A DNA stretch of 64,000 bases from an uncultured Alphaproteobacteria bacterium (GTDB taxonomy: Bacteria > Pseudomonadota > Alphaproteobacteria > RF32 > CAG-239), in the NCBI GenBank assembly GCA_910584385.1, contig CAJUAK010000002.1, positions 34,418 to 98,417 of the forward strand, given 5' to 3'. Position numbers and translations under genes: made by a program. This document shows positions 11,362-42,692 of the stretch, piece after piece; position 1 is the stretch's first letter; each line of letters starts with the position of its first letter. The notes below the pieces were generated by a model. The model ran no database searches. It worked only from the letters and a program-made list of their open reading frames with translations, and was not told the origin of the DNA.

Positions 11362-11904
11362 ATGTCTGAATTGTTCAATTTGTTTTCTTTATTTTTTAAA
11401 ATAGGGCTTTTTACCTTTGGCGGCGGCTATGCCATGCTGCCTTTGCTTCAGGATGAAATTGTAAAAAAAAGGGCTTGGGCGACGGATGAGGAAATGTTGG
11501 ATTATTATTCTATCGGGCAATGTACGCCGGGAATTATCGCCATAAATGTTTCTACCTTTATCGGCTGCAAGCGGAAAGGCGTTATCGGCGGGATTGTGGC
11601 GACGTTGGGCATGGTTGCGCCATCGCTGATTATCATTATGATGGTTGCCGCTTTTTTAAAGAAATATATGGATAATATTTATCTGGTGCAGGCATTTGAG
11701 GGAATAAGGATTGCCGTTACGGCTTTGATGGCCGATATTTTATGGAATCTGTTTCCTAAAAGCATAACAGGGCGGTTTGGATTTTTTATCTTTGTTTTGG
11801 GGCTGGCGATGCTTTTGTTCTTTCATCTTTCGGCGGTGTCCGTCGTTGCAGCGGCCGGTTTCTTGGGCTTTGTGCACGGATATTTTCAGCGGAGGGCTAA
11901 ATGA
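11362..11904 (+). CDS. chrA: Chromate transporter ChrA family, short-chain half 1.
   Basis: Hits the FGGGYAMLPLL motif. Paired with a second half via an ATGA overlap. Confidence 0.7.
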   Translation: MSELFNLFSLFFKIGLFTFGGGYAMLPLLQDEIVKKRAWATDEEMLDYYSIGQCTPGIIAINVSTFIGCKRKGVIGGIVATLGMVAPSLIIIMMVAAFLKKYMDNIYLVQAFEGIRIAVTALMADILWNLFPKSITGRFGFFIFVLGLAMLLFFHLSAVSVVAAAGFLGFVHGYFQRRAK

Positions 11905-12419
11905 TATATGCCACTTTAGCGGTTGAGTTTTTTAAAATCGGCTTGTTTGCAATTGGCGGCGGCCTGGTTACTGTTCCTTTTTTGTTTGACTTGGCCGGGA
12001 AATATGGTTGGTTCAGCGTCTCTGATTTGGCGGATATGATTGCCGTTTCAGAATCAACTCCCGGGCCTTTGGGCGTGAATATGGCGACTTATGTCGGCTA
12101 TGATGTGGCGGGAATCGGCGGCGGCATTGCGGCAACGCTTGGGCTGGTTATGCCGTCGATCATTATCATTATTTTATTGTCACGGTTTCTCAAAAAATTC
12201 AGCTGCGATTTGCGCGTGCAAGATGTCTTGCGTGGAATCCGCCCTGCTGTTTTGGCTTTGATTTTAACCGCAGGATTGGAAGTCGGAAAAATGGCCGTCG
12301 GCAATTGGAAACAAGCCGGAATTTTTGTTGTTTTTTTTGCGGCAATCCATTATTGGAAAAAAAGCCCGATTTTATATATTGTTTCTGCGGCGGTTTTGGG
12401 CGTTGCGCTAAAGCTTTAG
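11901..12419 (+). CDS. chrA: Chromate transporter ChrA family, short-chain half 2.
   Basis: FAIGGGLVTVPFL motif, paralogous to half 1. Confidence 0.7.
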   Translation: MIYATLAVEFFKIGLFAIGGGLVTVPFLFDLAGKYGWFSVSDLADMIAVSESTPGPLGVNMATYVGYDVAGIGGGIAATLGLVMPSIIIIILLSRFLKKFSCDLRVQDVLRGIRPAVLALILTAGLEVGKMAVGNWKQAGIFVVFFAAIHYWKKSPILYIVSAAVLGVALKL

Positions 12420-12875: not shown

Positions 12876-14300
12876 ATGCCGCAAAATACAAAAACAAAAA
12901 TTCTGGCAACGATAGGCCCTTCTTCTGCCACGCGTGAACAGATTGAAAAATTGATTGATGCGGGGGCTGATGCTTTCCGCATTAACTTCAGCCACGGAAC
13001 CCACGCCGAACATAAAGAAAGGGTTGGCATTATCCGCAAGCTGGAAAAAGAAAAGGGCATTTATATTTCTATTTTGGCAGATTTGCAGGGGCCGAAGCTC
13101 CGTGTGGGCGTTTTCAGCTCCGACAGCGTCTTGCTGAAGGCCGGGCAGAAATTCCGCCTGGATCTTGATGAGGCTCCCGGCGATGTAACGAGAGTCAATT
13201 TGCCGCATAAGGAAATTTTTGCTGCGCTTAAGCCCGGGGAAGATTTGCTTCTTAATGATGGAAACATCCGGCTCCATGTTGATAAATGCGGTAAGGATTT
13301 TGCAGATACGACAGTGGTGGTTGGCGGTGTGCTTTCTGCCCATAAAGGGGTTAACCTGCCCAACACGCAGCTGGCGATTTCAGCCATTACCGAAAAAGAC
13401 AAAGATGATTTGAAATTCGCCTTAAAACTTGGCGTGGACTGGATCGGCATGTCTTTTGTGCAAACGGCTGACGATGTGCGCCAGGCTAAAAAGCTTATTC
13501 AGGATAAAGCGCTCCTTATTTCCAAGTTGGAAAAGCCCAGCGCGATGGAAGAACTGGATGAAATTGTCCAGCTTTCTGACGCCATTATGGTTGCCCGCGG
13601 TGATTTGGGCGTGGAATGTCCGGTTTACACGGTTCCGGTTATGCAAAAACGGATTGTCAGCGCTTGCCGCAAATATGCCCGCCCGGTTATTATTGCCACC
13701 CAGATGCTGGAATCAATGATTAATAATCCGACTCCGACAAGGGCTGAGGTTTCCGATGTGGCGACTGCCGTTTATGACGGGGCTGATGCCGTGATGCTTT
13801 CTGCAGAAACGGCTGCGGGGCATTATCCGACAGAAGCCGTGTCAATGATGCACCGCACTATTGAAAATGTGGAAGCTGATCCGCTGTTTTATACATTGAT
13901 GCGCTCGTCGCGCATGCAGCCTTGCAAAGCCAGCGAAGCCGACTCGATTACTTTTGCGGCCAGCGAAGTTTCTTGCGTGTTAAAAGATGTTGCCGCAATT
14001 GCGACCTATACGACTTCCGGCTTTACGACGTTCCTGACTGCACGCGAGCGTCCGGATTTGCCGATTATCGCCATTACGCAGACGGTTGAAGTTGCTCGCC
14101 GTTTGGCACTTGTCTGGGGAACTAAAAGCTTTATTAATAAAGATAGTTTCAAAAGTTTTGACAAAGTTGAAGATGCGGCTGTTAAAATCGCCCTTAAAAA
14201 TAATTTTGCCAAGCACGGGCAGAATCTTATTATTACTGCCGGCTATCCGTTGGCAAAGAAGGGGATGACGAATTTGCTGCATACTGTTCATATTCCCTGA
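12876..14300 (+). CDS. pyk: Pyruvate kinase.
   Basis: Full-length pyruvate kinase barrel plus C-terminal domain (KILATIGPS..., MVARGDLG). Confidence 0.9.
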   Translation: MPQNTKTKILATIGPSSATREQIEKLIDAGADAFRINFSHGTHAEHKERVGIIRKLEKEKGIYISILADLQGPKLRVGVFSSDSVLLKAGQKFRLDLDEAPGDVTRVNLPHKEIFAALKPGEDLLLNDGNIRLHVDKCGKDFADTTVVVGGVLSAHKGVNLPNTQLAISAITEKDKDDLKFALKLGVDWIGMSFVQTADDVRQAKKLIQDKALLISKLEKPSAMEELDEIVQLSDAIMVARGDLGVECPVYTVPVMQKRIVSACRKYARPVIIATQMLESMINNPTPTRAEVSDVATAVYDGADAVMLSAETAAGHYPTEAVSMMHRTIENVEADPLFYTLMRSSRMQPCKASEADSITFAASEVSCVLKDVAAIATYTTSGFTTFLTARERPDLPIIAITQTVEVARRLALVWGTKSFINKDSFKSFDKVEDAAVKIALKNNFAKHGQNLIITAGYPLAKKGMTNLLHTVHIP

Positions 14301-14313
14301 AAAGTTCGTCTAG

Positions 14314-14424
14314 CTGGTAACTAATACAGAAATAAAAAGGCGGAAGTTTCCTCACGTACCTCTATGTGCGCTGCGGTACTTCCGTTTTTATTTCTTATTA
14401 TTTACGCACGTTATCAGAACTTTC
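14314..14424. repeat. Intergenic structured repeat, type B copy 1. About 88% identical to 31585..31694.
   Basis: Direct alignment with the second copy. Contains the stem cggaagt/acttccg and the core tcacgtacctctatgtgcgct. Confidence 0.6.
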
Positions 14425-14443
14425 TTGTTGCTTAACGAATAAT

Positions 14444-14473
14444 ATAAAAAAAGCCTGCCGAAAACGGCAGGCC
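14444..14473 (-). terminator. Rho-independent terminator for rpmJ (gcctgccg aaaa cggcaggc, with a T-run on the minus strand).
   Basis: Hairpin plus A8 on the plus strand, downstream of the minus-strand rpmJ stop. Confidence 0.55.
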
Positions 14474-14495
14474 TCTCAAAACTGTCAAAAAAGGA

Positions 14496-17739: not shown

Positions 17740-19956
17740 ATGTTATGTGCTATTTATCATTTTTTTATTTCCGCTGCTTTTGTTTTTATGAGTGCAGTTT
17801 CTGTTAATGCCGCCACTTATTGGCTGCCGGACTATCAAGGTGGACATTCTTTAGGAAGGCCTTTTCCCGACCCTAATCAAGAAGATTCATGTACAAAGTT
17901 TAATATGCTTTCAGCAGTGCCTAATGGCGCTGTCTGTGATACGGCGTATCCCGGAAACGGGCTGCGCTGCTACCGCAACTGTCGCTGCAAGTCGGAGTTC
18001 ACCTACACCTCACACACATACAATCTGAAATGCAGTGACAGTTGCACCTTGAATGGCGTAACAAAATATAAATGCCTTAAGTGTTGTAATGATGGATACG
18101 TTTTTGTTAGTTCGACAGGCAAACCAATGCCATGTGAGGCACATCTGTTGGATGAGCAGCCTGTTTTGAATTCCAGCTGCGGAAGCGGAAAATGTTTTAA
18201 ATGTTTAAGCGATGTATGCCCACCGTCTTCCAAGACGAAGGAAGCCTGTGAAAGCGAAGGAGGCGTGCCGGTTTCTGTTGCAGCTACAACAGAAGCTGGA
18301 ACAACTTGTTATAATTGTACAAAATGTGTAAGTGGCACAGTTTTGTGTGATTACGACAAATGCGCAAGTAACATCCAGATGCTCCCTAATGTGGCAGAAA
18401 AGAAAATGATGAGTTGCTGCCGTGTGCCATGCAGTGTTTGCCCGCTCGGGCAAACACAATGTCCGAGTGCACCGGGTACGATAGCTTGTGTCGATAAAAA
18501 TAATAAGGGTTGCTGCTCAGATATCGACTGCGCCGGCAATAGCACGGAAACACGTTGTGATTTGACAACGTATACTTGCACGCTGCCGCTCTGTGATACG
18601 GCGAACGGCTATAGCGCTTCCAAGCCTTCTTCCTGTAAGGATGGAAAAACACTCTGTCAGCAAAGCAGCAATAGCTCTTGCTGGGGCTGTTGCGGCGTGG
18701 AATGTGAAAGCGGTTATAGCACGGCAACCACAAAGGAAAGCTGTAAAGACGGGCAGACTTTTGAGCAGCAGAGCAATAATGCAGCCTGTGGAAAATGCAC
18801 AGGGATTGCCTGCCAGACGGGTTATGCAACAAACGTTGTTCCTTATTCGCCGGATATGGACGCATTTATTACCAATATTACATGTGAGGACGGACAATCA
18901 GTGATTGACCAATCAACAAATCCGGCTTGTAAAAAATGCAGCGGTACGGCTTGCGCAAGCGGTTATAGTACAGCAATCACAAAAGAAAGCTGTAAGTCTG
19001 GACAGACTTTTGAACAGCAGAGTAACAAGACCATATGTGGAAAATGTGATGGCGTTGCGTGTGAAGAGGGATATACATTGCGGCATACGGTAACCATGGG
19101 TGGATTTCCAACCAGCATTGGTGTTGTTTGCCAAGGAACACAATATCTTGTAAAACAGCCGACAAATGAGAAATGTGAAAAATGTTCAAGCTGTCCTCAG
19201 GGTTATAAGTCAGCCACATCGTTGCTTGTAACTAGTGTTTGTAAAGATGGCGAGAAATCTGAAAAGCATCCAAGCATAACCAATTGTGTGAAATGCGTTG
19301 GCACACCCTGCGAAGAAGGGTATAGCACGACAAGCAAAACAGTTAATAATGGCTATAAGCTGGAAACACAGACCAGCAATTCTCAATGTACAAAGCTTGT
19401 TGAATGTAAAGCGACTTGCAGCAATACTCAGATTAAACAGCCTAATAGTAGTGCGACTAATAAATGCGAAGTCTGTCTTGATTGTGCAAGTGGCTATTAT
19501 TCGAATATTACTTCTTGTCCTACAGGTCAAAAGTTAGAACGCCAGCAGGCTTACAGCCAATATCATAGTTGTGTCAGATGTGTTGCTGATTGTGAAGCTG
19601 ATTACAGTACGGAAACGAAAAGTTGTCCGGATGGTCAGACATTAAAAACGCAGACATCGAATACCAGTTGTAAGATGTGTACAGGGACGGCTTGTATAAG
19701 CGGTTATAGTACGAAAGTTACCTGTAAATCAGATTTGGCAACTGTAAAACAATCTTCAAACAACAATTGTAAAAAATGTAAAGACTGTGTAACAGATGGG
19801 TGTGGCAGCGATCAGTTTTGCAATGAGACAACGGGTATTTGCTTGTTCTCCGCAGGTTTATGTCCGGGTGGAACAGCGCAGTATAAGCTCGTCAACGGGG
19901 TTCGGGTATTTATTAAATGCGTCAATGGCTCGGCCAGTTCGCAGCTTGTCTATTGA
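17740..19956 (+). CDS. Secreted cysteine-rich tandem-repeat protein of unknown function.
   Basis: Signal peptide, then at least eight degenerate repeats of about 40 aa of the form C-x-x-GYST-...-C-x-x-GQTxExQSNxxC-x-K-C-x-G-x-AC. Cysteine content is roughly 13%. Confidence 0.6.
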   Translation: MLCAIYHFFISAAFVFMSAVSVNAATYWLPDYQGGHSLGRPFPDPNQEDSCTKFNMLSAVPNGAVCDTAYPGNGLRCYRNCRCKSEFTYTSHTYNLKCSDSCTLNGVTKYKCLKCCNDGYVFVSSTGKPMPCEAHLLDEQPVLNSSCGSGKCFKCLSDVCPPSSKTKEACESEGGVPVSVAATTEAGTTCYNCTKCVSGTVLCDYDKCASNIQMLPNVAEKKMMSCCRVPCSVCPLGQTQCPSAPGTIACVDKNNKGCCSDIDCAGNSTETRCDLTTYTCTLPLCDTANGYSASKPSSCKDGKTLCQQSSNSSCWGCCGVECESGYSTATTKESCKDGQTFEQQSNNAACGKCTGIACQTGYATNVVPYSPDMDAFITNITCEDGQSVIDQSTNPACKKCSGTACASGYSTAITKESCKSGQTFEQQSNKTICGKCDGVACEEGYTLRHTVTMGGFPTSIGVVCQGTQYLVKQPTNEKCEKCSSCPQGYKSATSLLVTSVCKDGEKSEKHPSITNCVKCVGTPCEEGYSTTSKTVNNGYKLETQTSNSQCTKLVECKATCSNTQIKQPNSSATNKCEVCLDCASGYYSNITSCPTGQKLERQQAYSQYHSCVRCVADCEADYSTETKSCPDGQTLKTQTSNTSCKMCTGTACISGYSTKVTCKSDLATVKQSSNNNCKKCKDCVTDGCGSDQFCNETTGICLFSAGLCPGGTAQYKLVNGVRVFIKCVNGSASSQLVY

Positions 19957-21465: not shown

Positions 21466-21830
21466 GCTTTGGCGCGACCGTAAATGTCTTCATAACGGAT
21501 GATGTCATTTTCATCTAGGTTTTCGCCGTATTGGACTTCTATGAATTCCAGATTGGCGTTTTTATCGTTGCGGATGCGGTGTTTGGTCTGAACGGGGATA
21601 AACACGTTTTCTCCGGATTTTTTTATAATTTCTTTATCGCCAAGCGTAACGACGGCTTCGCCCTCTACCATAATCCAATGTTCGCTGCGGTGGTTATGCG
21701 ACTGGAGCGAGAGGCAGCTGCCCGGGGTAACAATGATTTTTTTTACGCAGAAATTGTTTCCGCCGTCTAAAACTTCCCAAGTTCCCCATGGACGGGTGTC
21801 GTGATCGCCTTTTTTATATGTATTTGCCAT
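21462..21830 (-). CDS. Cupin domain protein (mannose-6-phosphate isomerase type II C-terminal-like).
   Basis: Cupin motifs LSLQSHNHRSEHWIMVEG...IPVQTKHRIRN. Confidence 0.6.
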   Translation of the reverse strand: MANTYKKGDHDTRPWGTWEVLDGGNNFCVKKIIVTPGSCLSLQSHNHRSEHWIMVEGEAVVTLGDKEIIKKSGENVFIPVQTKHRIRNDKNANLEFIEVQYGENLDENDIIRYEDIYGRAKA

Positions 21831-29637: not shown

Positions 29638-31443
29638 ATGCATACCCCAATGGAGCGGATTAGGAATTTTGCAATTATTGCCCATATTGACCACGGCAAG
29701 TCAACGCTGGCCGATCGGCTTATCGAATATTGCGGCGGCCTGGAAAAAAGAGAAATGACCGAACAGGTTTTAGATTCCATGGATATTGAAAAAGAACGTG
29801 GCATTACGATTAAGGCGCAGACCGTGCGCCTGAACTACCAGGCTAAAGATGGAAATTCTTATCAGCTTAATTTGATGGATACGCCCGGACACGTGGACTT
29901 TTCCTATGAGGTCTCCCGGTCTTTGGCTTCATGCGAAGGGTCTGTTCTGGTCGTGGATGCCACGCAGGGCGTGGAAGCGCAAACTTTGGCAAATGTTTAT
30001 TTGGCACTTGACAATAATCATGAAATCATTCCGGTCTTGAATAAAATAGACCTTCCTTCGGCTGAGCCAGAGAAAGTAAAGCAGCAAATAGAAGACGTTA
30101 TCGGATTAGATGCTTCGGAAGCTGTTGAAACCTCCGGAAAAAGCGGGCTTGGCGTGGAAAATTTGTTGGAGGCGATTGTTCAAAAGCTTCCGTCTCCTTC
30201 CGGAGATGAAAAGGCGCCTTTGAAAGCTTTGCTGATTGACAGTTGGTATGACGCTTACCTCGGGGTTATTATCCTGGTGCGCATTCATGACGGGGTTTTG
30301 CGCAAAAAAACACAAATCCGCATGATGTCAAGCGGTGCCACCTATCTTGTCGACCGTGTTGGCATATTTACGCCCAAGATGCAGGATGTTGATGCGCTCT
30401 ATCCAGGGGAAGTCGGCTTTTTAACCGCCAGCATTAAAGCTGTTGCCGATTGCAGCATTGGCGATACGATTACGGATAATAAAATGCCTTGCCAGGAACC
30501 ATTGCAAGGGTTTAAACCTTCTGTCCCGGTTGTTTTTTGTTCTATTTTTCCGGTGGATTCCAGCCAATATGAGGCGCTAAAGGATGCATTGGCGAAACTT
30601 AAGCTGAATGATGCGAGCATCGATTACCAAAATGAAAATTCCGCGGCGCTGGGGTTGGGGTTCCGCTGCGGTTTCCTTGGCTTGCTGCACATGGAGATTA
30701 TCCAAGAGCGCTTAGGGCGGGAATTTGATTTGGATCTTATTACGACGGCGCCGTCCGTTGCTTACAAAATCCATCTGACGGACGGTTCCGAAATGCTGTT
30801 GCATAATCCGGCGGACATGCCTGATGTAACTAAAATTTCATCGATCGAAGAACCGGTCGTCAAGGCAACAATTATGGTTCCCGACACTTATTTGGGAGCG
30901 GTATTAAAACTTTGCAATGACCGTCGCGGCGAACAGCATGAATTGACCTATGTCGGGAGCCGGGCGATGGTGGTGTATAAAATTCCTTTAAATGAAATTG
31001 TCTTTGATTTTTATGACCGCCTGAAATCTATTACCAGCGGCTATGCCAGCTTTGATTATGAAATTATCGGCTATGAAGTTTCGGATTTGGTGCGTGTTCA
31101 AATTTTAATTAATGAAGAACCTGTTGATGCTTTGGCTTTTTTGTGCCATCGCAGCGAGGCCGAATCCCGCGGGCGCCAGATTTGCGAGCGCCTTAAAGAC
31201 CTCATCCCCAGGCATTTATTTAAAATTCCAATCCAGGCTGCCATCGGCGGAAGGGTTGTTGCCCGCGAAACCATCTCTGCTTTGCGCAAAGATGTAACGG
31301 CCAAATGTTATGGCGGCGATGTAACCCGTAAGCGTAAACTTCTGGATAAACAGAAAAAAGGCAAGCTCCGCATGCGGCAGTTCGGCAAGGTTGAAGTTCC
31401 CCAGTCGGCGTTTATTGAGGCGTTGCGTATCGGCGACCAGTAA
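29638..31443 (+). CDS. lepA: Elongation factor 4 (LepA).
   Basis: GTPase motifs ([17 protein letters not shown] and NKID) and the LepA-specific C-terminal domain. Confidence 0.9.
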
Positions 31444-31466
31444 AAAGTTCGTATAACGTCTCATTC

Positions 31467-31540
31467 AGCGCGATTAAATTCGGATGGAAAAAATTCACGT
31501 ACGTTTATGTACGCTAAAATTTTTTCCGCCTTTTAAATTA
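31467..31540. repeat. Intergenic structured repeat, type A copy 1.
   Basis: Stem ggaaaaaatt/aattttttcc around the core tcacgtacgtttatgtacgct. About 90% identical to 31713..31786. Confidence 0.55.
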
Positions 31541-31584
31541 CGCCGGCTAAGATATTCTCCAAACTTTTTATTCAAATTTTTCAG

Positions 31585-31694
31585 TTGGCAACTAATACAG
31601 AAATAGCAGGTCGGAAGTTTCCTCACGTACCTTATGTACGCTGTGGTACTTCCGCCTTTATTTCTTATTATTTGCGCACGCTATCCGAACTTTT
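31585..31694. repeat. Intergenic structured repeat, type B copy 2.
   Basis: Aligns with 14314..14424. Core cctcacgtaccttatgtacgctg. Confidence 0.6.
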
Positions 31695-31712
31695 ATCTTT
31701 ACGGCGCTCATC

Positions 31713-31786
31713 CGGCGCGATTGAATTCGGACGGAAAAAATTTACGTATGTTTATGTACGCTAAAATTTTTTCCGCCTTTTAAACC
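31713..31786. repeat. Intergenic structured repeat, type A copy 2. It abuts or overlaps the deoA stop.
   Basis: Aligns with 31467..31540. Confidence 0.55.
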
Positions 31787-33096
31787 TATCCGATCTTTTC
31801 GATAACACAGGCAGAAGCCGCTGGTTCTTTATCGCTTATTTGGATGTTGTCCAAGATATCTTTTGCCGCTTCCTGCCATTCTTCTTCGCTCTGGGCATGA
31901 ATAACGCAAAGCGGTGTGTGTGCATCGGCATAATCGCCGATTTGGCAAAAATCGCTAAAGCCGGTGGCATAGTCAAGTTTTTGATCGCTCCTAACCCGTC
32001 CGCCTTTAAGTTTGATTAATGCTAGTCCGATGTTTCGGGTATTCATGCCGCTGATGTATCCGCTTTTCTTTGCAAAAATTTCTTTTACAACTTTTGCTTT
32101 TGGAAGGTAATTGGCTGAATGTTCTGCAAAATCTTTCGGACCGCCGAGCATGGCAACCATTTTGGAGAATATTTCCAGTGCTTTTCCGCTCTTTAATGCC
32201 TTATTTAGTTTTTCTTCCGCTTCTTGAATACTGTCGGCTAATTTGCTGGTGAGCAAAAGTTCTGCACAGAGGGATAGCGTAATCTGGTGCAGGCGCTTGT
32301 CTTTATTTCTTCCTTGCAGATACTCGACAGCTTCCTGCATTTCCAGGGCATTGCCGACGGTTGTTCCTAAAACCTGATTCATGTCTGTCAGCAAGGCGCT
32401 GGTTTTGCAGCCTGCTGCATTCGCAACGTTTACAATTGATTTTGCTAATTTTCTGGCATCTTCCAAATTATCCATAAAAGCGCCGTTGCCGCATTTCAAA
32501 TCCATAACCAGGCAATCTAATCCGGCTGCCAGTTTTTTGGAAAGAATAGATGCCGTGATGAGCGGTATGGATTCAACTGTTCCGCAAACATCCCGTATTG
32601 CATATATTTTCTTATCGGCAGGTGCCAGATTTCCGGTTTGTCCGATAATTGCGCATCCGGCTTCTTTAACCGTTTGGGCGAATAGTTCATTTGTCGGCAT
32701 TGTTTGGTAGCCGGGAATAGAATCAAATTTATCCAGAGTGCCGCCGGTATGTCCGAGCCCGCGTCCGGAAATCATCGGGACGAATCCGCCGCAGGCAGCA
32801 ACCATAGGGGCCAGCATTAAGCTGACTTTGTCGCCGACGCCGCCGGAGGAATGTTTGTCAACAATCGGCCCGGGCATCCCTTTCCAGGAAAGGACATCTC
32901 CGGAATCCCTCATTGCAAGGGTTAGCGTGGCAGTTTCTTCATTGTTGAATCCATTAAGAAAAATGGCCATTGTGAGTGCGGCGGTTTGTGCATCCATAAT
33001 GCTTCCGTCCGTAATGCCCCGGATAAATTCTTGGATTTCTTCTTTGCTTAAAATTCCGCGATTGCGTTTTTTTCGTATAATTTCTTGTGGAAGCAT
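31786..33096 (-). CDS. deoA: Thymidine phosphorylase.
   Basis: Pyrimidine-nucleoside phosphorylase family motifs (KHSSGGVGDK, MISGRGLGHTGGTLDK). Confidence 0.9.
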   Translation of the reverse strand: MLPQEIIRKKRNRGILSKEEIQEFIRGITDGSIMDAQTAALTMAIFLNGFNNEETATLTLAMRDSGDVLSWKGMPGPIVDKHSSGGVGDKVSLMLAPMVAACGGFVPMISGRGLGHTGGTLDKFDSIPGYQTMPTNELFAQTVKEAGCAIIGQTGNLAPADKKIYAIRDVCGTVESIPLITASILSKKLAAGLDCLVMDLKCGNGAFMDNLEDARKLAKSIVNVANAAGCKTSALLTDMNQVLGTTVGNALEMQEAVEYLQGRNKDKRLHQITLSLCAELLLTSKLADSIQEAEEKLNKALKSGKALEIFSKMVAMLGGPKDFAEHSANYLPKAKVVKEIFAKKSGYISGMNTRNIGLALIKLKGGRVRSDQKLDYATGFSDFCQIGDYADAHTPLCVIHAQSEEEWQEAAKDILDNIQISDKEPAASACVIEKIG

Positions 33097-42217: not shown

Positions 42218-42637
42218 AAAATTGGTTATTGTTTATTGATGGTCATTCTGTTTGCTGCCGCGGCTTATGCGCAAGATAAATATGTGCGCCGCCGTCCCGA
42301 ACATAATTTCTTTATTCCCCAAGGGGCGATGGGACGCCCTGAAAAGCTTCCGATGCCCCATTACACAAAAGGCGAGGATGAAAGTGTTAAGAGCCTTAAA
42401 AATGCGGAAGAAGTGCCGCATTGGACTGATGATGAAATAGAAGAAATGCGCCAGCTCGCAAAGGCCCCGGCTTATCAGAAAAAATATGACGAATATATTG
42501 AAGATATTGAAGAAATTGATGAGAATGGCAGCCTTCCTGAAAATGAGGAATTAAAGGAAGATTTGCAGCAGATGGACTCTAATGAAAAAATCCGCCTTGA
42601 AATTCAAGGCGGAGAAAGCGGAAAGCCTCTTTTTTAG
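42218..42637 (+). CDS. Exported acidic hypothetical protein.
   Basis: Signal peptide MKKIGYCLLMVILFAAAAYAQ, followed by an E/D-rich region. Confidence 0.45.
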   Translation, partial: KIGYCLLMVILFAAAAYAQDKYVRRRPEHNFFIPQGAMGRPEKLPMPHYTKGEDESVKSLKNAEEVPHWTDDEIEEMRQLAKAPAYQKKYDEYIEDIEEIDENGSLPENEELKEDLQQMDSNEKIRLEIQGGESGKPLF

Positions 42638-42692
42638 CCGGGCTAATCAGCTAAAGCGTAATTTTTAGCCGGGCTAATCAGCTAAAGCGTAA
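42631..42692. repeat. Perfect 31-bp tandem duplication, two copies.
   Basis: tttttagccgggctaatcagctaaagcgtaa occurs twice. Each copy contains the stop codon of one of the convergent genes. Confidence 0.85.

Follow-up and report, generated by a model that had tools for sequence, protein, structure and literature searches.

ERIC repeats have been used as a typing tool for about 35 years. To our knowledge, neither their mode of movement nor the reason for the conservation of their centre has ever been explained, and they are generally regarded as limited to enterobacteria and vibrios. They are said, in work by De Gregorio from 2005, to lie at stop codons in one preferred orientation. Among other small repeats, ordinary MITEs are conserved at their transposase-bound ends, which match an IS in the same genome. 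Integron attC sites are palindromes of 57-141 bp that follow ORFs directly in a fixed orientation, and their hallmarks are RYYYAAC/GTTRRRY boxes at the hairpin foot and ORF-attC cassette arrays beside intI. An intrinsic terminator consists of a short G+C-rich stem followed directly by a T-run. Effects on mRNA processing have been reported for both Correia and ERIC elements, and some REPs supply stop codons to flanking ORFs. ERICs possess terminal inverted repeats, a target duplication and a terminal TA and are co-transcribed (PMC2229807, PMC10969869, PMC3184786). What an ERIC does to the mRNA upstream of it varies with its orientation and hinges on ribosomes unmasking a site for RNase E (PMC2229807). 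REPs are 20-40 bp in length with a GTAG or CGTC tag and stems of 5-13 bp, and REPINs are conserved in their REP halves and not at the tip; RPE-4 and RPE-6 have been reported as small CGTC-tagged REPs of a different design (PMC3733652).

The DNA analysed here (i.e. the window) is a stretch of 64,000 nucleotides from a gut alphaproteobacterium, a host outside the ERIC range of Enterobacteriaceae and Vibrionaceae. It derives from a human-gut metagenome contig and encodes GapR. The core T[CT]ACGTA[CT]NT(N)TATGT[AG]CGCT occurs four times in the window, always on the plus strand, against a chance expectation of none. Matches to the pattern TYACGTAYNTNTATGTRCGCT were found at 14352-14372, 31495-31515 and 31742-31762 (+) and to a form one base shorter at 31623-31642 (+), and none of 100 dinucleotide shuffles of the window contained a match to either pattern. 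A family HMM retrieved just four copies from the window (14295-14427, 31435-31570, 31574-31697 and 31698-31804), and a weak BLAST match at 21738, inside a coding sequence, was spurious. Both approaches bear out the four core copies in 64 kb that the original prediction had counted. Its recurrence of an element of about 110 bp at about 88% identity was also recovered, with 87.5% identity over 112 nt between elements B1 and B2; elements A1 and A2 exhibited 92% identity over 78 nt. Each core is the tip of an imperfect palindrome of 104-126 nt, and the apical stem-loop and the termini (TA)AAAGTTCG...CGAACTTT(TA) are common to subtypes A and B. The stems proposed originally (i.e. cggaagt/acttccg and ggaaaaaatt/aattttttcc) are correct as sequences but make up just the inner portion of hairpins extending over the entire element, so that the boundaries first assigned were too short by about 10-25 nt per side. 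It had been overlooked how far the palindromes extend, that they keep one position and one orientation with respect to the stop codon of the gene before them, and that they resemble ERIC. The observation of a structured repeat family with a shared core is confirmed, and its interpretation as a whole is partly supported.

Element B1 (14301..14423, +) is a 123-nt imperfect palindrome with ends AAAGTTCG...CAGAACTTT (HMM envelope 14295-14427, E 1e-34). Its left end is the base directly after the TGA stop codon of pyk (14298..14300, +), which lies 51 nt 5' of the tip TCACGTACCTCTATGTGCGCT (14352..14372, +), a 5-bp stem CGTAC/GTGCG with one G.T pair and a 6-nt loop. The tail of B1 is T-rich. The intrinsic terminator of rpmJ (14448..14477), present on the minus strand only, stands between B1 and rpmJ transcription, and B1 would therefore be part of the pyk transcript. 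At the second, unrelated locus, three elements form a head-to-tail A-B-A array. The TAA stop codon of lepA (31441..31443, +) abuts the left end of A1 (31444..31569, +), a 126-nt imperfect palindrome with ends AAAGTTCGTATAAC...TCTCCAAACTTTTT (HMM E 1e-23) whose tip TCACGTACGTTTATGTACGCT (31495..31515, +) matches the core pattern and again lies 51 nt 3' of the stop codon. Element B2 (31571..31694, +; HMM E 6e-33) is 124 nt long with a degenerate left end AAATTTTTCAGTTGG and right end CTATCCGAACTTTT, and its tip TCACGTACCTTATGTACGCT (31623..31642, +) has a 5-nt loop and the shorter form of the core. Element A2 (31696..31799, +; HMM E 2e-16) has a tip matching the core pattern (TTACGTATGTTTATGTACGCT; 31742..31762, +) and is 104 nt long, with about 16 nt deleted from within its right arm. 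At the right end, CTATCCGATCTTTT, A2 runs into the stop codon (31786-31788) and the last four codons of the thymidine phosphorylase gene (-), and A2 is therefore not strictly intergenic. The elements do occupy spacers of convergent genes (i.e. pyk+/rpmJ- and lepA+/thymidine phosphorylase-) as had been claimed, but the description of all copies as intergenic fails for A2. Inverted terminal repeats (AAAGTTCG...CGAACTTT) are present; a flanking TA was found on both sides of A1 and at the right end of B2 and is absent at B1.

Folding of the whole elements gave an MFE of -44.9 kcal/mol for B1 (z -6.6) and a z of -6.1 for B2. Covariation was assessed in a subfamily alignment of 19 gut-alphaproteobacterial copies, in which 18 of 23 consensus pairs exhibited double compensatory changes and 93.7% of cells were paired as compared to 72% in shuffles. 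The covariation score was 0.58 versus 0.20 in shuffles, none of 500 shuffles reached 0.58, and slid controls did not exceed 0.23. Compensatory stem changes, the outcome on which the original prediction had staked its structural claim, are therefore present, and its conserved apical sequence is carried on differing stems that co-vary. RNAalifold over all 129 sequences recovered the 5-bp tip stem alone because the arms sit in different registers; per-sequence folds with swapped-arm controls were therefore used alongside the subfamily alignment. At least 20 arm-to-arm pairs were formed in 93% of cluster representatives but in 19% of swapped-arm controls, and the median hairpin span of the family was 127 nt, both among the matches listed. 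The opposite strand folded better in 54 of 59 clusters among the matches listed, with sense-strand RNA being the less stable. The family sense strand has a pyrimidine fraction of 0.574, and the opposite strand is better by 9.4 kcal/mol. An asymmetry of G.U pairs was rejected as the cause (109 vs 87, p = 0.13), and the difference arises from mismatched pyrimidines that face each other on the sense strand. Loops of 4 to 6 nt occur across the family whilst the stem halves are constant, and arm G+C content ranges from 0.30 to 0.73 with the tip kept (matches listed).

A search for the core was performed on species-representative genomes and detected at least 133 copies of the tip in at least 119 loci. 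Invariance of the tip among these matches is partly by construction because the search pattern fixed the core; extra copies reached through the arms exhibited variation in the loop. Arms were clustered with the core masked for the scan copies and the four window copies together (i.e. at least 137 instances), and at least 62 unrelated arm clusters or sets were found to carry the same tip. Among the matches listed, carriers belong to the Alpha-, Beta- and Gammaproteobacteria, Desulfobacterota, Bacillota and Verrucomicrobia, about 93% of the arm sets fold as long hairpins, and the same tip occurs in at least nine Rickettsia loci and also in Brucella, Mesorhizobium and Phyllobacterium. The same genera harbour named families of palindromic repeats, each about 100-150 bp long (RPE in Rickettsia, Bru-RS in Brucella and RIME in Rhizobium), a likeness of genus, size and palindromic type only. 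The nearest named relative of the window among the matches listed was an 'uncultured Azospirillaceae' MAG, and look-ups of exact proteins with pyk, L36 and the cold-shock protein reached no other species. A loose core pattern in viral contigs produced single matches at chance level, and 17 of 22 matches of the strict core corresponded to one phage coding sequence without a hairpin. No match to Rfam was obtained at the gathering score in the window or at the elements of 15 related loci, ERIC included, and a permissive threshold (E up to 5) returned noise only. A literature search found no paper linking ERIC with repeats of Alphaproteobacteria, Clostridia or Rickettsia.

Position relative to genes was strongly polar. 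Of 85 cases among the matches listed, 59 had the stop codon of a co-oriented ORF at a distance of 37-67 nt on the 5' side of the tip, as compared to 3 of 37 for the mirror arrangement (Fisher p = 1.3e-10), and the same polarity was observed when counted by arm cluster (32/40 vs 3/24). A second peak of distances, at about 175-190 nt, reflects the second members of arrays, and some of the copies listed are located inside ORFs, in tandem arrays or far from genes. As elements begin at upstream stop codons, they would constitute 3'UTR parts of mRNAs, and co-transcription of the window elements as a 3'UTR hairpin is, on sequence grounds, the most likely situation. A sequence scan detected no promoter-like sites in or before the lepA array and none pointing into B1. 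In a terminator scan, the tip and T-run of type A were called on the minus strand only, B1 and B2 were uncalled, and pyk, lepA and the thymidine phosphorylase gene exhibited no terminator-like site besides these elements. The original statement that this is not a plain terminator is half right, since these three genes have no other terminator-like site, and the elements are their sole candidates for signals of 3'-end formation.

The closest described counterpart is ERIC. ERIC is a single imperfect palindrome of 127 bp (127-128 nt in E. coli copies), as compared to 123-126 nt for B1, A1 and B2 and a median of 127 nt for the family, and 5424 out of 5426 E. coli genomes were confirmed to contain its centre. 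The ERIC tip TCACTTACTTATGTAAGCT equals the family tip at 17 of 19 bases, with the two mismatches forming a compensatory T-A / G-C pair, and the window tip likewise agrees with the ERIC central consensus GAGCTTACATAAGTAAGTGACT at 17 of 19 positions with a loop 1-2 nt longer. The apical motif TCAC-N-TAC...GTA-N'-GCT is common to both; the tip stem is CTTAC/GTAAG with a 4-nt loop in ERIC and CGTAC/GTACG with a 5-6 nt loop in the family. Both exhibit strand asymmetry (for ERIC, a pyrimidine fraction of 0.60-0.61 and an opposite strand folding 14-16 kcal/mol better), and both have termini of the GTATA type, with flanking TA in the window at A1 and at the right end of B2, although the window family possesses extra outer ends (AAAGTTCG/CGAACTTT), unlike ERIC. 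In the RefSeq annotation of E. coli, the TAA stop codon of ybhI precedes the ERIC tip by 55 nt, versus 51 nt at both window loci.

The window-family HMM did not match the E. coli ERIC locus, and the ERIC HMM did not match the window copies at E < 10. An HMM of Clostridial arms gave a match to ERIC through the left arm and tip (E = 0.007 in 1 Mb), and at least six of the best eleven ERIC-HMM matches in 1 Mb were family copies on the right strand (E 0.011-0.08). A Caedibacter copy aligned end to end with the ERIC HMM, including the TATAC...GGGTATA termini. These profile matches are marginal. Alignment of arms alone against ERIC gave a mean z of 0.6, with z >3 in 3 of 58 clusters (matches listed), and homology between the window arms and ERIC arms is not apparent from these alignments.

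Evidence for mobility came from related genomes. The closest relative among the matches listed (L188), whose pyk protein is 78% identical to that of the window, has a syntenic pyk-rpmJ spacer that lacks B1. A related MAG (L093) contains a single type-A element after lepA, where the window has three; this element is orthologous to A1, with arms that have diverged and still pair. Arrays of elements were observed in the window and in L084, L106 and L146. Presence/absence differences between related genomes and occupation of two unrelated loci in the window are as expected for a MITE in the generic sense, and generic MITEs (e.g. Correia/NEMIS, RUP and Nezha) are likewise small, non-coding, multi-copy elements located 3' of genes, with terminal inverted repeats and hairpins in the transcript. 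Unlike ordinary MITEs, the family is conserved most at its centre, is polar with respect to stop codons and has no parental IS seen in at least 119 loci. Clustering of neighbouring ORFs at these loci identified housekeeping GTPases and ABC proteins alone, with no enriched transposase or partner family, and no gene for a mobilising enzyme was found beside copies. The genomes compared offered no filled and empty sites related closely enough to delimit the ends and a target duplication, and no general long target duplication was detected, two odd cases apart. The label 'REP/MITE-like' given in the original prediction names the right kind of object, but the REP/RAYT type does not fit: REPs and REPINs are also intergenic palindromes 3' of genes, whilst these elements are about 125 bp, are conserved at the tip and have no GTAG/CGTC tag at their ends. 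CGTC REPs were also considered and dropped.

We consider it probable that the four sequences represent one non-autonomous, MITE-like family of palindromic repeats about 125 bp long, of the ERIC/IRU kind and probably homologous to ERIC/IRU. Such elements would spread by inserting at TA in a transposition-like manner, in this case at the TA within a TAA stop codon, and would persist where tolerated or useful, i.e. in the first part of the 3'UTR. Co-transcription with pyk and lepA would generate a hairpin of about 55 bp with its foot at the stop codon. A terminating ribosome may melt this foot and expose the AU-rich right end CGAACUUUU to RNase E, a step that we infer by analogy with a proposal made for stop-adjacent Yersinia ERICs, whereas the 3' hairpin would stay in place on transcripts that are untranslated or completed and could act as a block to exonucleases and perhaps as an aid to termination. 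The near-invariant tip (stem CGTAC/GTACG with unpaired TCA and CT flanks) would be read in folded form by a propagating or processing factor, and a role as the determinant read by whatever propagates or processes the element is the most likely one for it. The suggestion that the tip is a recognised motif was reasonable and is strengthened by conservation of the tip across phyla. Several observations run against insertion of a repeat of the ERIC/IRU kind. A 2-bp palindromic TA target cannot account for a fixed orientation at stop codons, and a conserved tip is unexpected for an ordinary MITE that arose as an internally deleted IS; such elements are conserved at their ends instead. The window copies have no detectable whole-length homology to ERIC. 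Finally, no transposase is enriched near the copies listed, B1 has no flanking TA and no target duplication is defined.

Selection by the host would offer a different origin for the same position. The elements would then be a cis-acting RNA module and not selfish DNA, i.e. a stop-anchored hairpin whose tip is bound by a factor present in most bacteria, such as a ribonuclease, ribosome-associated protein or termination factor, that controls 3'-end formation, decay, or termination/recycling of the upstream gene. This reading draws on the very sharp position and orientation at stop codons across 32 arm clusters (matches listed), on a tip kept while arm G+C drifts from 0.30 to 0.73 and on retention of the lepA element in two species, where changes in the arms are compensated. 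The carriers extend to reduced genomes (e.g. Rickettsia), and no terminator-like site besides the elements serves pyk, lepA or the thymidine phosphorylase gene. We nevertheless judge it unlikely: sense RNA is the weaker fold (opposite strand better in 54/59 clusters among the matches listed), copies also occur in tandem, within ORFs and at a long distance from genes, related genomes carry different sets of copies, no Rfam family matches, and the neighbour genes are too unrelated for a regulatory module. It is also compatible with a mobile origin and does not exclude one. The same lack of another terminator-like site, the location between convergent genes, the sequence TTTCTTGTTG after B1 and the terminator-like tip and T-run of type A on the minus strand would suit plain intrinsic, partly bidirectional terminators made alike by convergent constraints. 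Such constraints are very hard to reconcile with an identical 20-nt tip on at least 62 arm sets across phyla, with hairpins of 50-55 bp containing many mismatches or with three tandem copies in one spacer; moreover, the right ends of most subfamilies have no T-run and the scan did not call B1 or B2, making this a very improbable account.

Constant stem halves around a loop of 4 to 6 nt fit recognition of a hairpin rather than of duplex DNA, and a folded single-stranded or cruciform DNA site could be envisaged, in which a recombinase or HUH nuclease reads the tip and its unpaired flanks (TCA / CT) as in REP/RAYT, IS200/IS605 ends, integron attC or rolling-circle origins. Conservation of the unpaired bases beside the 5-bp stem and the strong asymmetry between the two strands agree with such a site, as does attC, which is likewise palindromic with a fixed orientation after ORFs. 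The elements, however, lack a GTAG/CGTC tag and differ from REPs in size (PMC3733652). RYYYAAC/GTTRRRY boxes are missing from the base, where the left and right sides of the foot read GTTCG and CGAAC, respectively (i.e. the inverse order to attC), and the neighbours are housekeeping genes without cassette arrays. No Y1/HUH or integrase genes are enriched in at least 119 loci, and the better-folding strand, usually the antisense of the upstream gene, is presumably not the lagging-strand template in co-oriented genes. We regard a site of this type as improbable. The structures are stable and conserved, as would be expected of an independently transcribed family of small RNAs, one of the candidates offered originally. 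That candidate is unsupported and has next to no likelihood, given that no promoter-like sites lie in or before the lepA array or are oriented into B1, that the elements start at the stop codons of upstream genes, that Rfam has no match and that no single-stranded seed is conserved besides the loop of 4-6 nt.

Tip, length, strand asymmetry and stop-codon polarity are common to the window elements, at least 62 arm sets and E. coli ERIC. An extension of the preferred reading as an ERIC-like mobile repeat, speculative and rather doubtful at present, is that ERIC is just the enterobacterial branch of a pan-bacterial class of hairpins of about 127 nt, anchored at stop codons in one orientation, with a tip TCA-CGTAC-loop-GTACG-CT recognised by a factor that Proteobacteria, Bacillota, Desulfobacterota and Verrucomicrobia have in common. 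This factor could be a new mobilisation machinery that targets translation stops, or a universal host factor that binds RNA or DNA and links the termination of translation to what becomes of mRNA 3' ends. If so, the ERIC-type family would be far older or far more widely transferred than believed, and both the proteins co-occurring with it across phyla and the binder of the tip could be sought by comparison. For annotation, the comparison accounts for a class of structured 3'UTR sequences in MAGs of gut Alphaproteobacteria and Clostridia that is absent from current libraries.

Other known sequences were compared with the elements. CcrM-associated CIR repeats were dropped on account of their two-arm structure and GANTC, and inspection of the sequence alone led to rejection of dif/Xer sites, of DnaA, CRP and LexA boxes, of group II intron domain V and of the rRNA sarcin-ricin loop.

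The core sequence was confirmed at all four places where the original prediction had put it (14352-14372, 31495-31515, 31623-31642 and 31742-31762, all on the + strand), and dinucleotide shuffling of the window (100 replicates) gave no core match. The predicted elements were present, but their extent had been under-called: each is a larger imperfect palindrome that runs from AAAGTTCG at the left end to CGAACTTT at the right end and carries the core only at its tip. The palindromes lie at 14301-14423 (B1), 31444-31569 (A1), 31571-31694 (B2) and 31696-31799 (A2), each on the + strand. The two type-B copies are 87.5% identical over 112 nt, with fold z-scores of -6.6 and -6.1, and the type-A copies are 92% identical over 78 nt, the right arm of A2 having an internal deletion of ~16 nt relative to A1. 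A family profile searched against the window plus extra contig flank matched these four copies only; a weak match at 21738 was dismissed as a fifth copy, being coding sequence. The window (G+C 41.8%) is part of an 84-kb contig, belongs to a gut-metagenome alphaproteobacterium and includes a GapR gene. B1 begins at the base following the pyk stop codon (TGA, 14298-14300, + strand) and is parted from the convergent rpmJ by an intrinsic terminator of that gene (14448-14477, - strand only). A1 likewise begins at the base following the lepA stop codon (TAA, 31441-31443, + strand), and A1, B2 and A2 occupy the entire spacer between lepA and the thymidine phosphorylase gene. The thymidine phosphorylase ORF (31786-33096, - strand) is overlapped by A2 at its 3' end, with the right terminal repeat of A2, CTATCCGATCTTTT (31786-31799), providing the TAG stop and last four codons.

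Pairing of the arms was assessed in an alignment of 19 gut-alphaproteobacterial copies, the four of the window among them. The covariation check suggested with the original prediction did reveal compensatory stem changes, as 18 of 23 consensus pairs were altered on both sides with pairing kept. Paired cells amounted to 93.7%, as compared to 72% after shuffling, and the covariation score was 0.58 versus 0.20, a level reached in none of 500 shuffles. Pairing fell to 30-52% when the partner was shifted by one to three columns. In a related metagenome-assembled genome (MAG), L093, an element at the same site after lepA has strongly diverged but still paired arms and an identical tip. Covariation of the arms shows selection for, or regeneration of, the hairpin, and does not distinguish DNA from RNA.

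A scan for the core in one genome per bacterial species yielded at least 119 loci with at least 133 core copies; by our estimate, ~70 chance matches to the pattern were expected in the whole 596-Gb collection, of which part was read. Complementary flanks were present on nearly every match listed. The 137 instances analysed (i.e. 133 copies among the matches listed and the four window copies) fell into at least 62 arm clusters when compared with the core masked (blastn, E < 1e-6), so that dozens of unrelated stems carry an identical tip. At least 20 arm-to-arm pairs were formed by 93% of cluster representatives, as compared to 19% when the 3' arm was swapped from another cluster. Among the matches listed, hairpin span had a median of 127 nt and clustered densely at 118-129 nt, and arm G+C ranged from 0.30 to 0.73, indicating that the arms, unlike the tip, have adopted host composition. 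Hosts among these matches were Alphaproteobacteria (gut MAGs, Rickettsia, Caedibacter, Phyllobacterium, Mesorhizobium and Brucella), Beta- and Gammaproteobacteria MAGs, Desulfobacterota MAGs, many Clostridia MAGs, two Paenibacillaceae genomes (one isolate and one MAG) and one Verrucomicrobia MAG. Invariance of the core is partly by construction because matches were selected on it. Extra copies found via their arms exhibited loop variants (ATTTAA, TACTT, TTAA and CATC), with tip stem halves that were seldom altered and, when altered, occasionally showed compensatory pairs. As loop length varies and the stem halves are constant, these sequences argue for recognition of the tip as a folded structure. 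Of 22 strict-core matches in viral contigs, 17 belonged to a single conserved phage coding sequence that has no hairpin arms (L005, L008, L011 and others) and were put down to chance, multiplied by homology; four were Rhizobiales-type elements inside proviral contigs (L009, L018, L052 and L053). A bacterial RNase P RNA match in Candidatus Rickettsia kotlanii (L082:2480-2997) was 518 nt long against a 367-nt model, which suggests that this gene holds an insertion, possibly a palindromic element.

The position of the tip relative to genes was examined using crude ORF calls (longest non-overlapping ORFs of at least 100 codons, with distance taken to the nearest ORF end). Among the matches listed, 59 of 85 cases with a co-oriented upstream ORF had its stop codon at a distance of 37-67 nt from the tip, at which the stop falls on the element's left foot. 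For the mirror arrangement (i.e. an opposite-strand ORF ending at the right foot) this distance was found in 3 of 37 (Fisher p = 1.3e-10). The same polarity was evident by cluster, with 32 of 40 arm clusters among these matches stop-adjacent in the co-oriented arrangement versus 3 of 24 in the mirror. A second peak at ~175-190 nt represented the second elements of arrays. The stop codons counted were TAA (44), TGA (13) and TAG (5). Both window loci fit the rule, with 51 nt from stop to tip after pyk and lepA. From these counts, TCACGTAC normally reads on the strand that is sense for the upstream gene. This strand was pyrimidine-rich (fraction 0.574) in 54 of 59 arm clusters among the matches listed, and its RNA folded on average 9.4 kcal/mol more weakly than the opposite strand, again in 54 of 59 clusters among those matches; G.U pairs do not account for the difference. 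B1 is an exception to the fold asymmetry (-44 kcal/mol for the sense and -35 kcal/mol for the opposite strand).

The known repeat ERIC (enterobacterial repetitive intergenic consensus) was compared with the family. The ERIC centre, as given by the ERIC-PCR primers, was found at 100% identity in 5424 of 5426 complete E. coli genomes, with a median of five occurrences in each. On the complementary strand the ERIC tip reads TCACTTACTTATGTAAGCT and the family tip TCACGTACTTTATGTACGCT; 17 of 19 bases are identical, the two differing bases form a compensatory pair, and the loops differ by one base. Two E. coli ERIC copies share the family length (127-128 nt), are pyrimidine-rich on the tip-matching strand (0.60-0.61) and fold 14-16 kcal/mol better on the opposite strand, the same direction as in the family. 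The copy after ybhI (L185, ybhI-ybhJ) has the family orientation, its tip lying 55 nt downstream of the annotated TAA stop. De Gregorio et al., in 2005, reportedly found one common orientation for ERICs adjoining stops. Another copy, in the aceF-lpdA spacer (L269), lies 167 nt after the aceF stop and ~30 nt before lpdA, in the opposite orientation to the ybhI copy. Reviews describe Yersinia ERICs as co-transcribed, as affecting upstream mRNA in an orientation-dependent manner and as carrying, in the right repeat, an RNase E site that is unmasked ribosome-dependently (PMC2229807, PMC10969869); the placement of the E. coli copies agrees with these reports. Profile support for the link is marginal. 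A Clostridial-arm profile matched the ERIC locus (E = 0.007 in 1 Mb; left arm and tip aligned), of the eleven best matches of an ERIC profile at least six were family copies on the right strand, and a Caedibacter copy aligned with this profile end to end, TATAC...GGGTATA termini included. Profiles of the window family and ERIC did not detect each other in either direction, and arm-only similarity to ERIC was weak. The window elements are thus termed ERIC-like, and probably homologous to ERIC, rather than ERIC proper; the kind of element is already known and the window copies are additional members. In a literature search beyond which most older primary papers lay, so that a prior description is possible, no report was found of ERIC-like elements outside Gammaproteobacteria, nor any that connects such elements to the repeats found in Rickettsia, Rhizobiales or Clostridia.

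Several observations point to mobility of the elements: copies occupy unrelated loci; the window and several relatives contain head-to-tail arrays; in L188, the closest relative found (pyk 78% identical), the syntenic pyk-rpmJ spacer lacks B1; and one element follows lepA in L093 versus three in the window. TA is present on both flanks of A1 and next to the right end of B2; an empty site near enough to prove TA duplication was not found, nor was any general long duplication. No transposase or other protein family was enriched near copies at the 119 loci listed. The truncated element of L084 (tip from position 166 of the reverse-complemented locus) lies between direct repeats of at least 38 nt, each a terminator-like hairpin, and an element of L119 (tip from position 436, also reverse-complemented) has a 9-nt direct repeat, GCTGTTTAA, at both junctions; such duplications are absent from most copies. 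The L188 spacer lacking B1 (L188:3923-4100) starts with TAGCAAAGTTGTGGCAATATG, whose faint likeness to the element left end AAAGTTCGT could be coincidental or reflect a remnant or a target preference.

The best-supported reading is that the window elements are non-autonomous palindromic elements of the ERIC type. Such an element would insert at TA, persist at the start of a 3'UTR and be transcribed together with the upstream gene. As the hairpin foot sits at the stop codon, a terminating ribosome would have to open the hairpin, which would make the AU-rich right end accessible to RNase E; when no translation takes place, the hairpin would shield the 3' end and may help termination. We infer these steps from element anatomy and published ERIC work. 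An ordinary MITE model leaves three features unaccounted for, namely a conserved tip instead of conserved ends, the fixed orientation at stop codons and the pyrimidine-rich sense strand. Rival readings are a host-selected 3'UTR module, which is compatible with a mobile origin, and a single-stranded-DNA recombination or nicking site. The elements might also be plain terminators; outside the elements, a window scan found nothing terminator-like that could serve pyk, lepA or the thymidine phosphorylase gene. A further rival reading is that of sRNAs; the same scan found no promoter-like sites pointing into the elements, and no Rfam family matched them, even with E up to 5.

The type-A tip with its T-run scored as terminator-like on the minus strand (31497-31514). 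Other repeats in the window comprise a 137-nt direct repeat (18692-18828 and 18941-19077; 72% identity), a 31-nt tandem pair (42622-42683; 90% identity) and two adjacent chromate-transporter half genes that are similar to each other (11392-12172).
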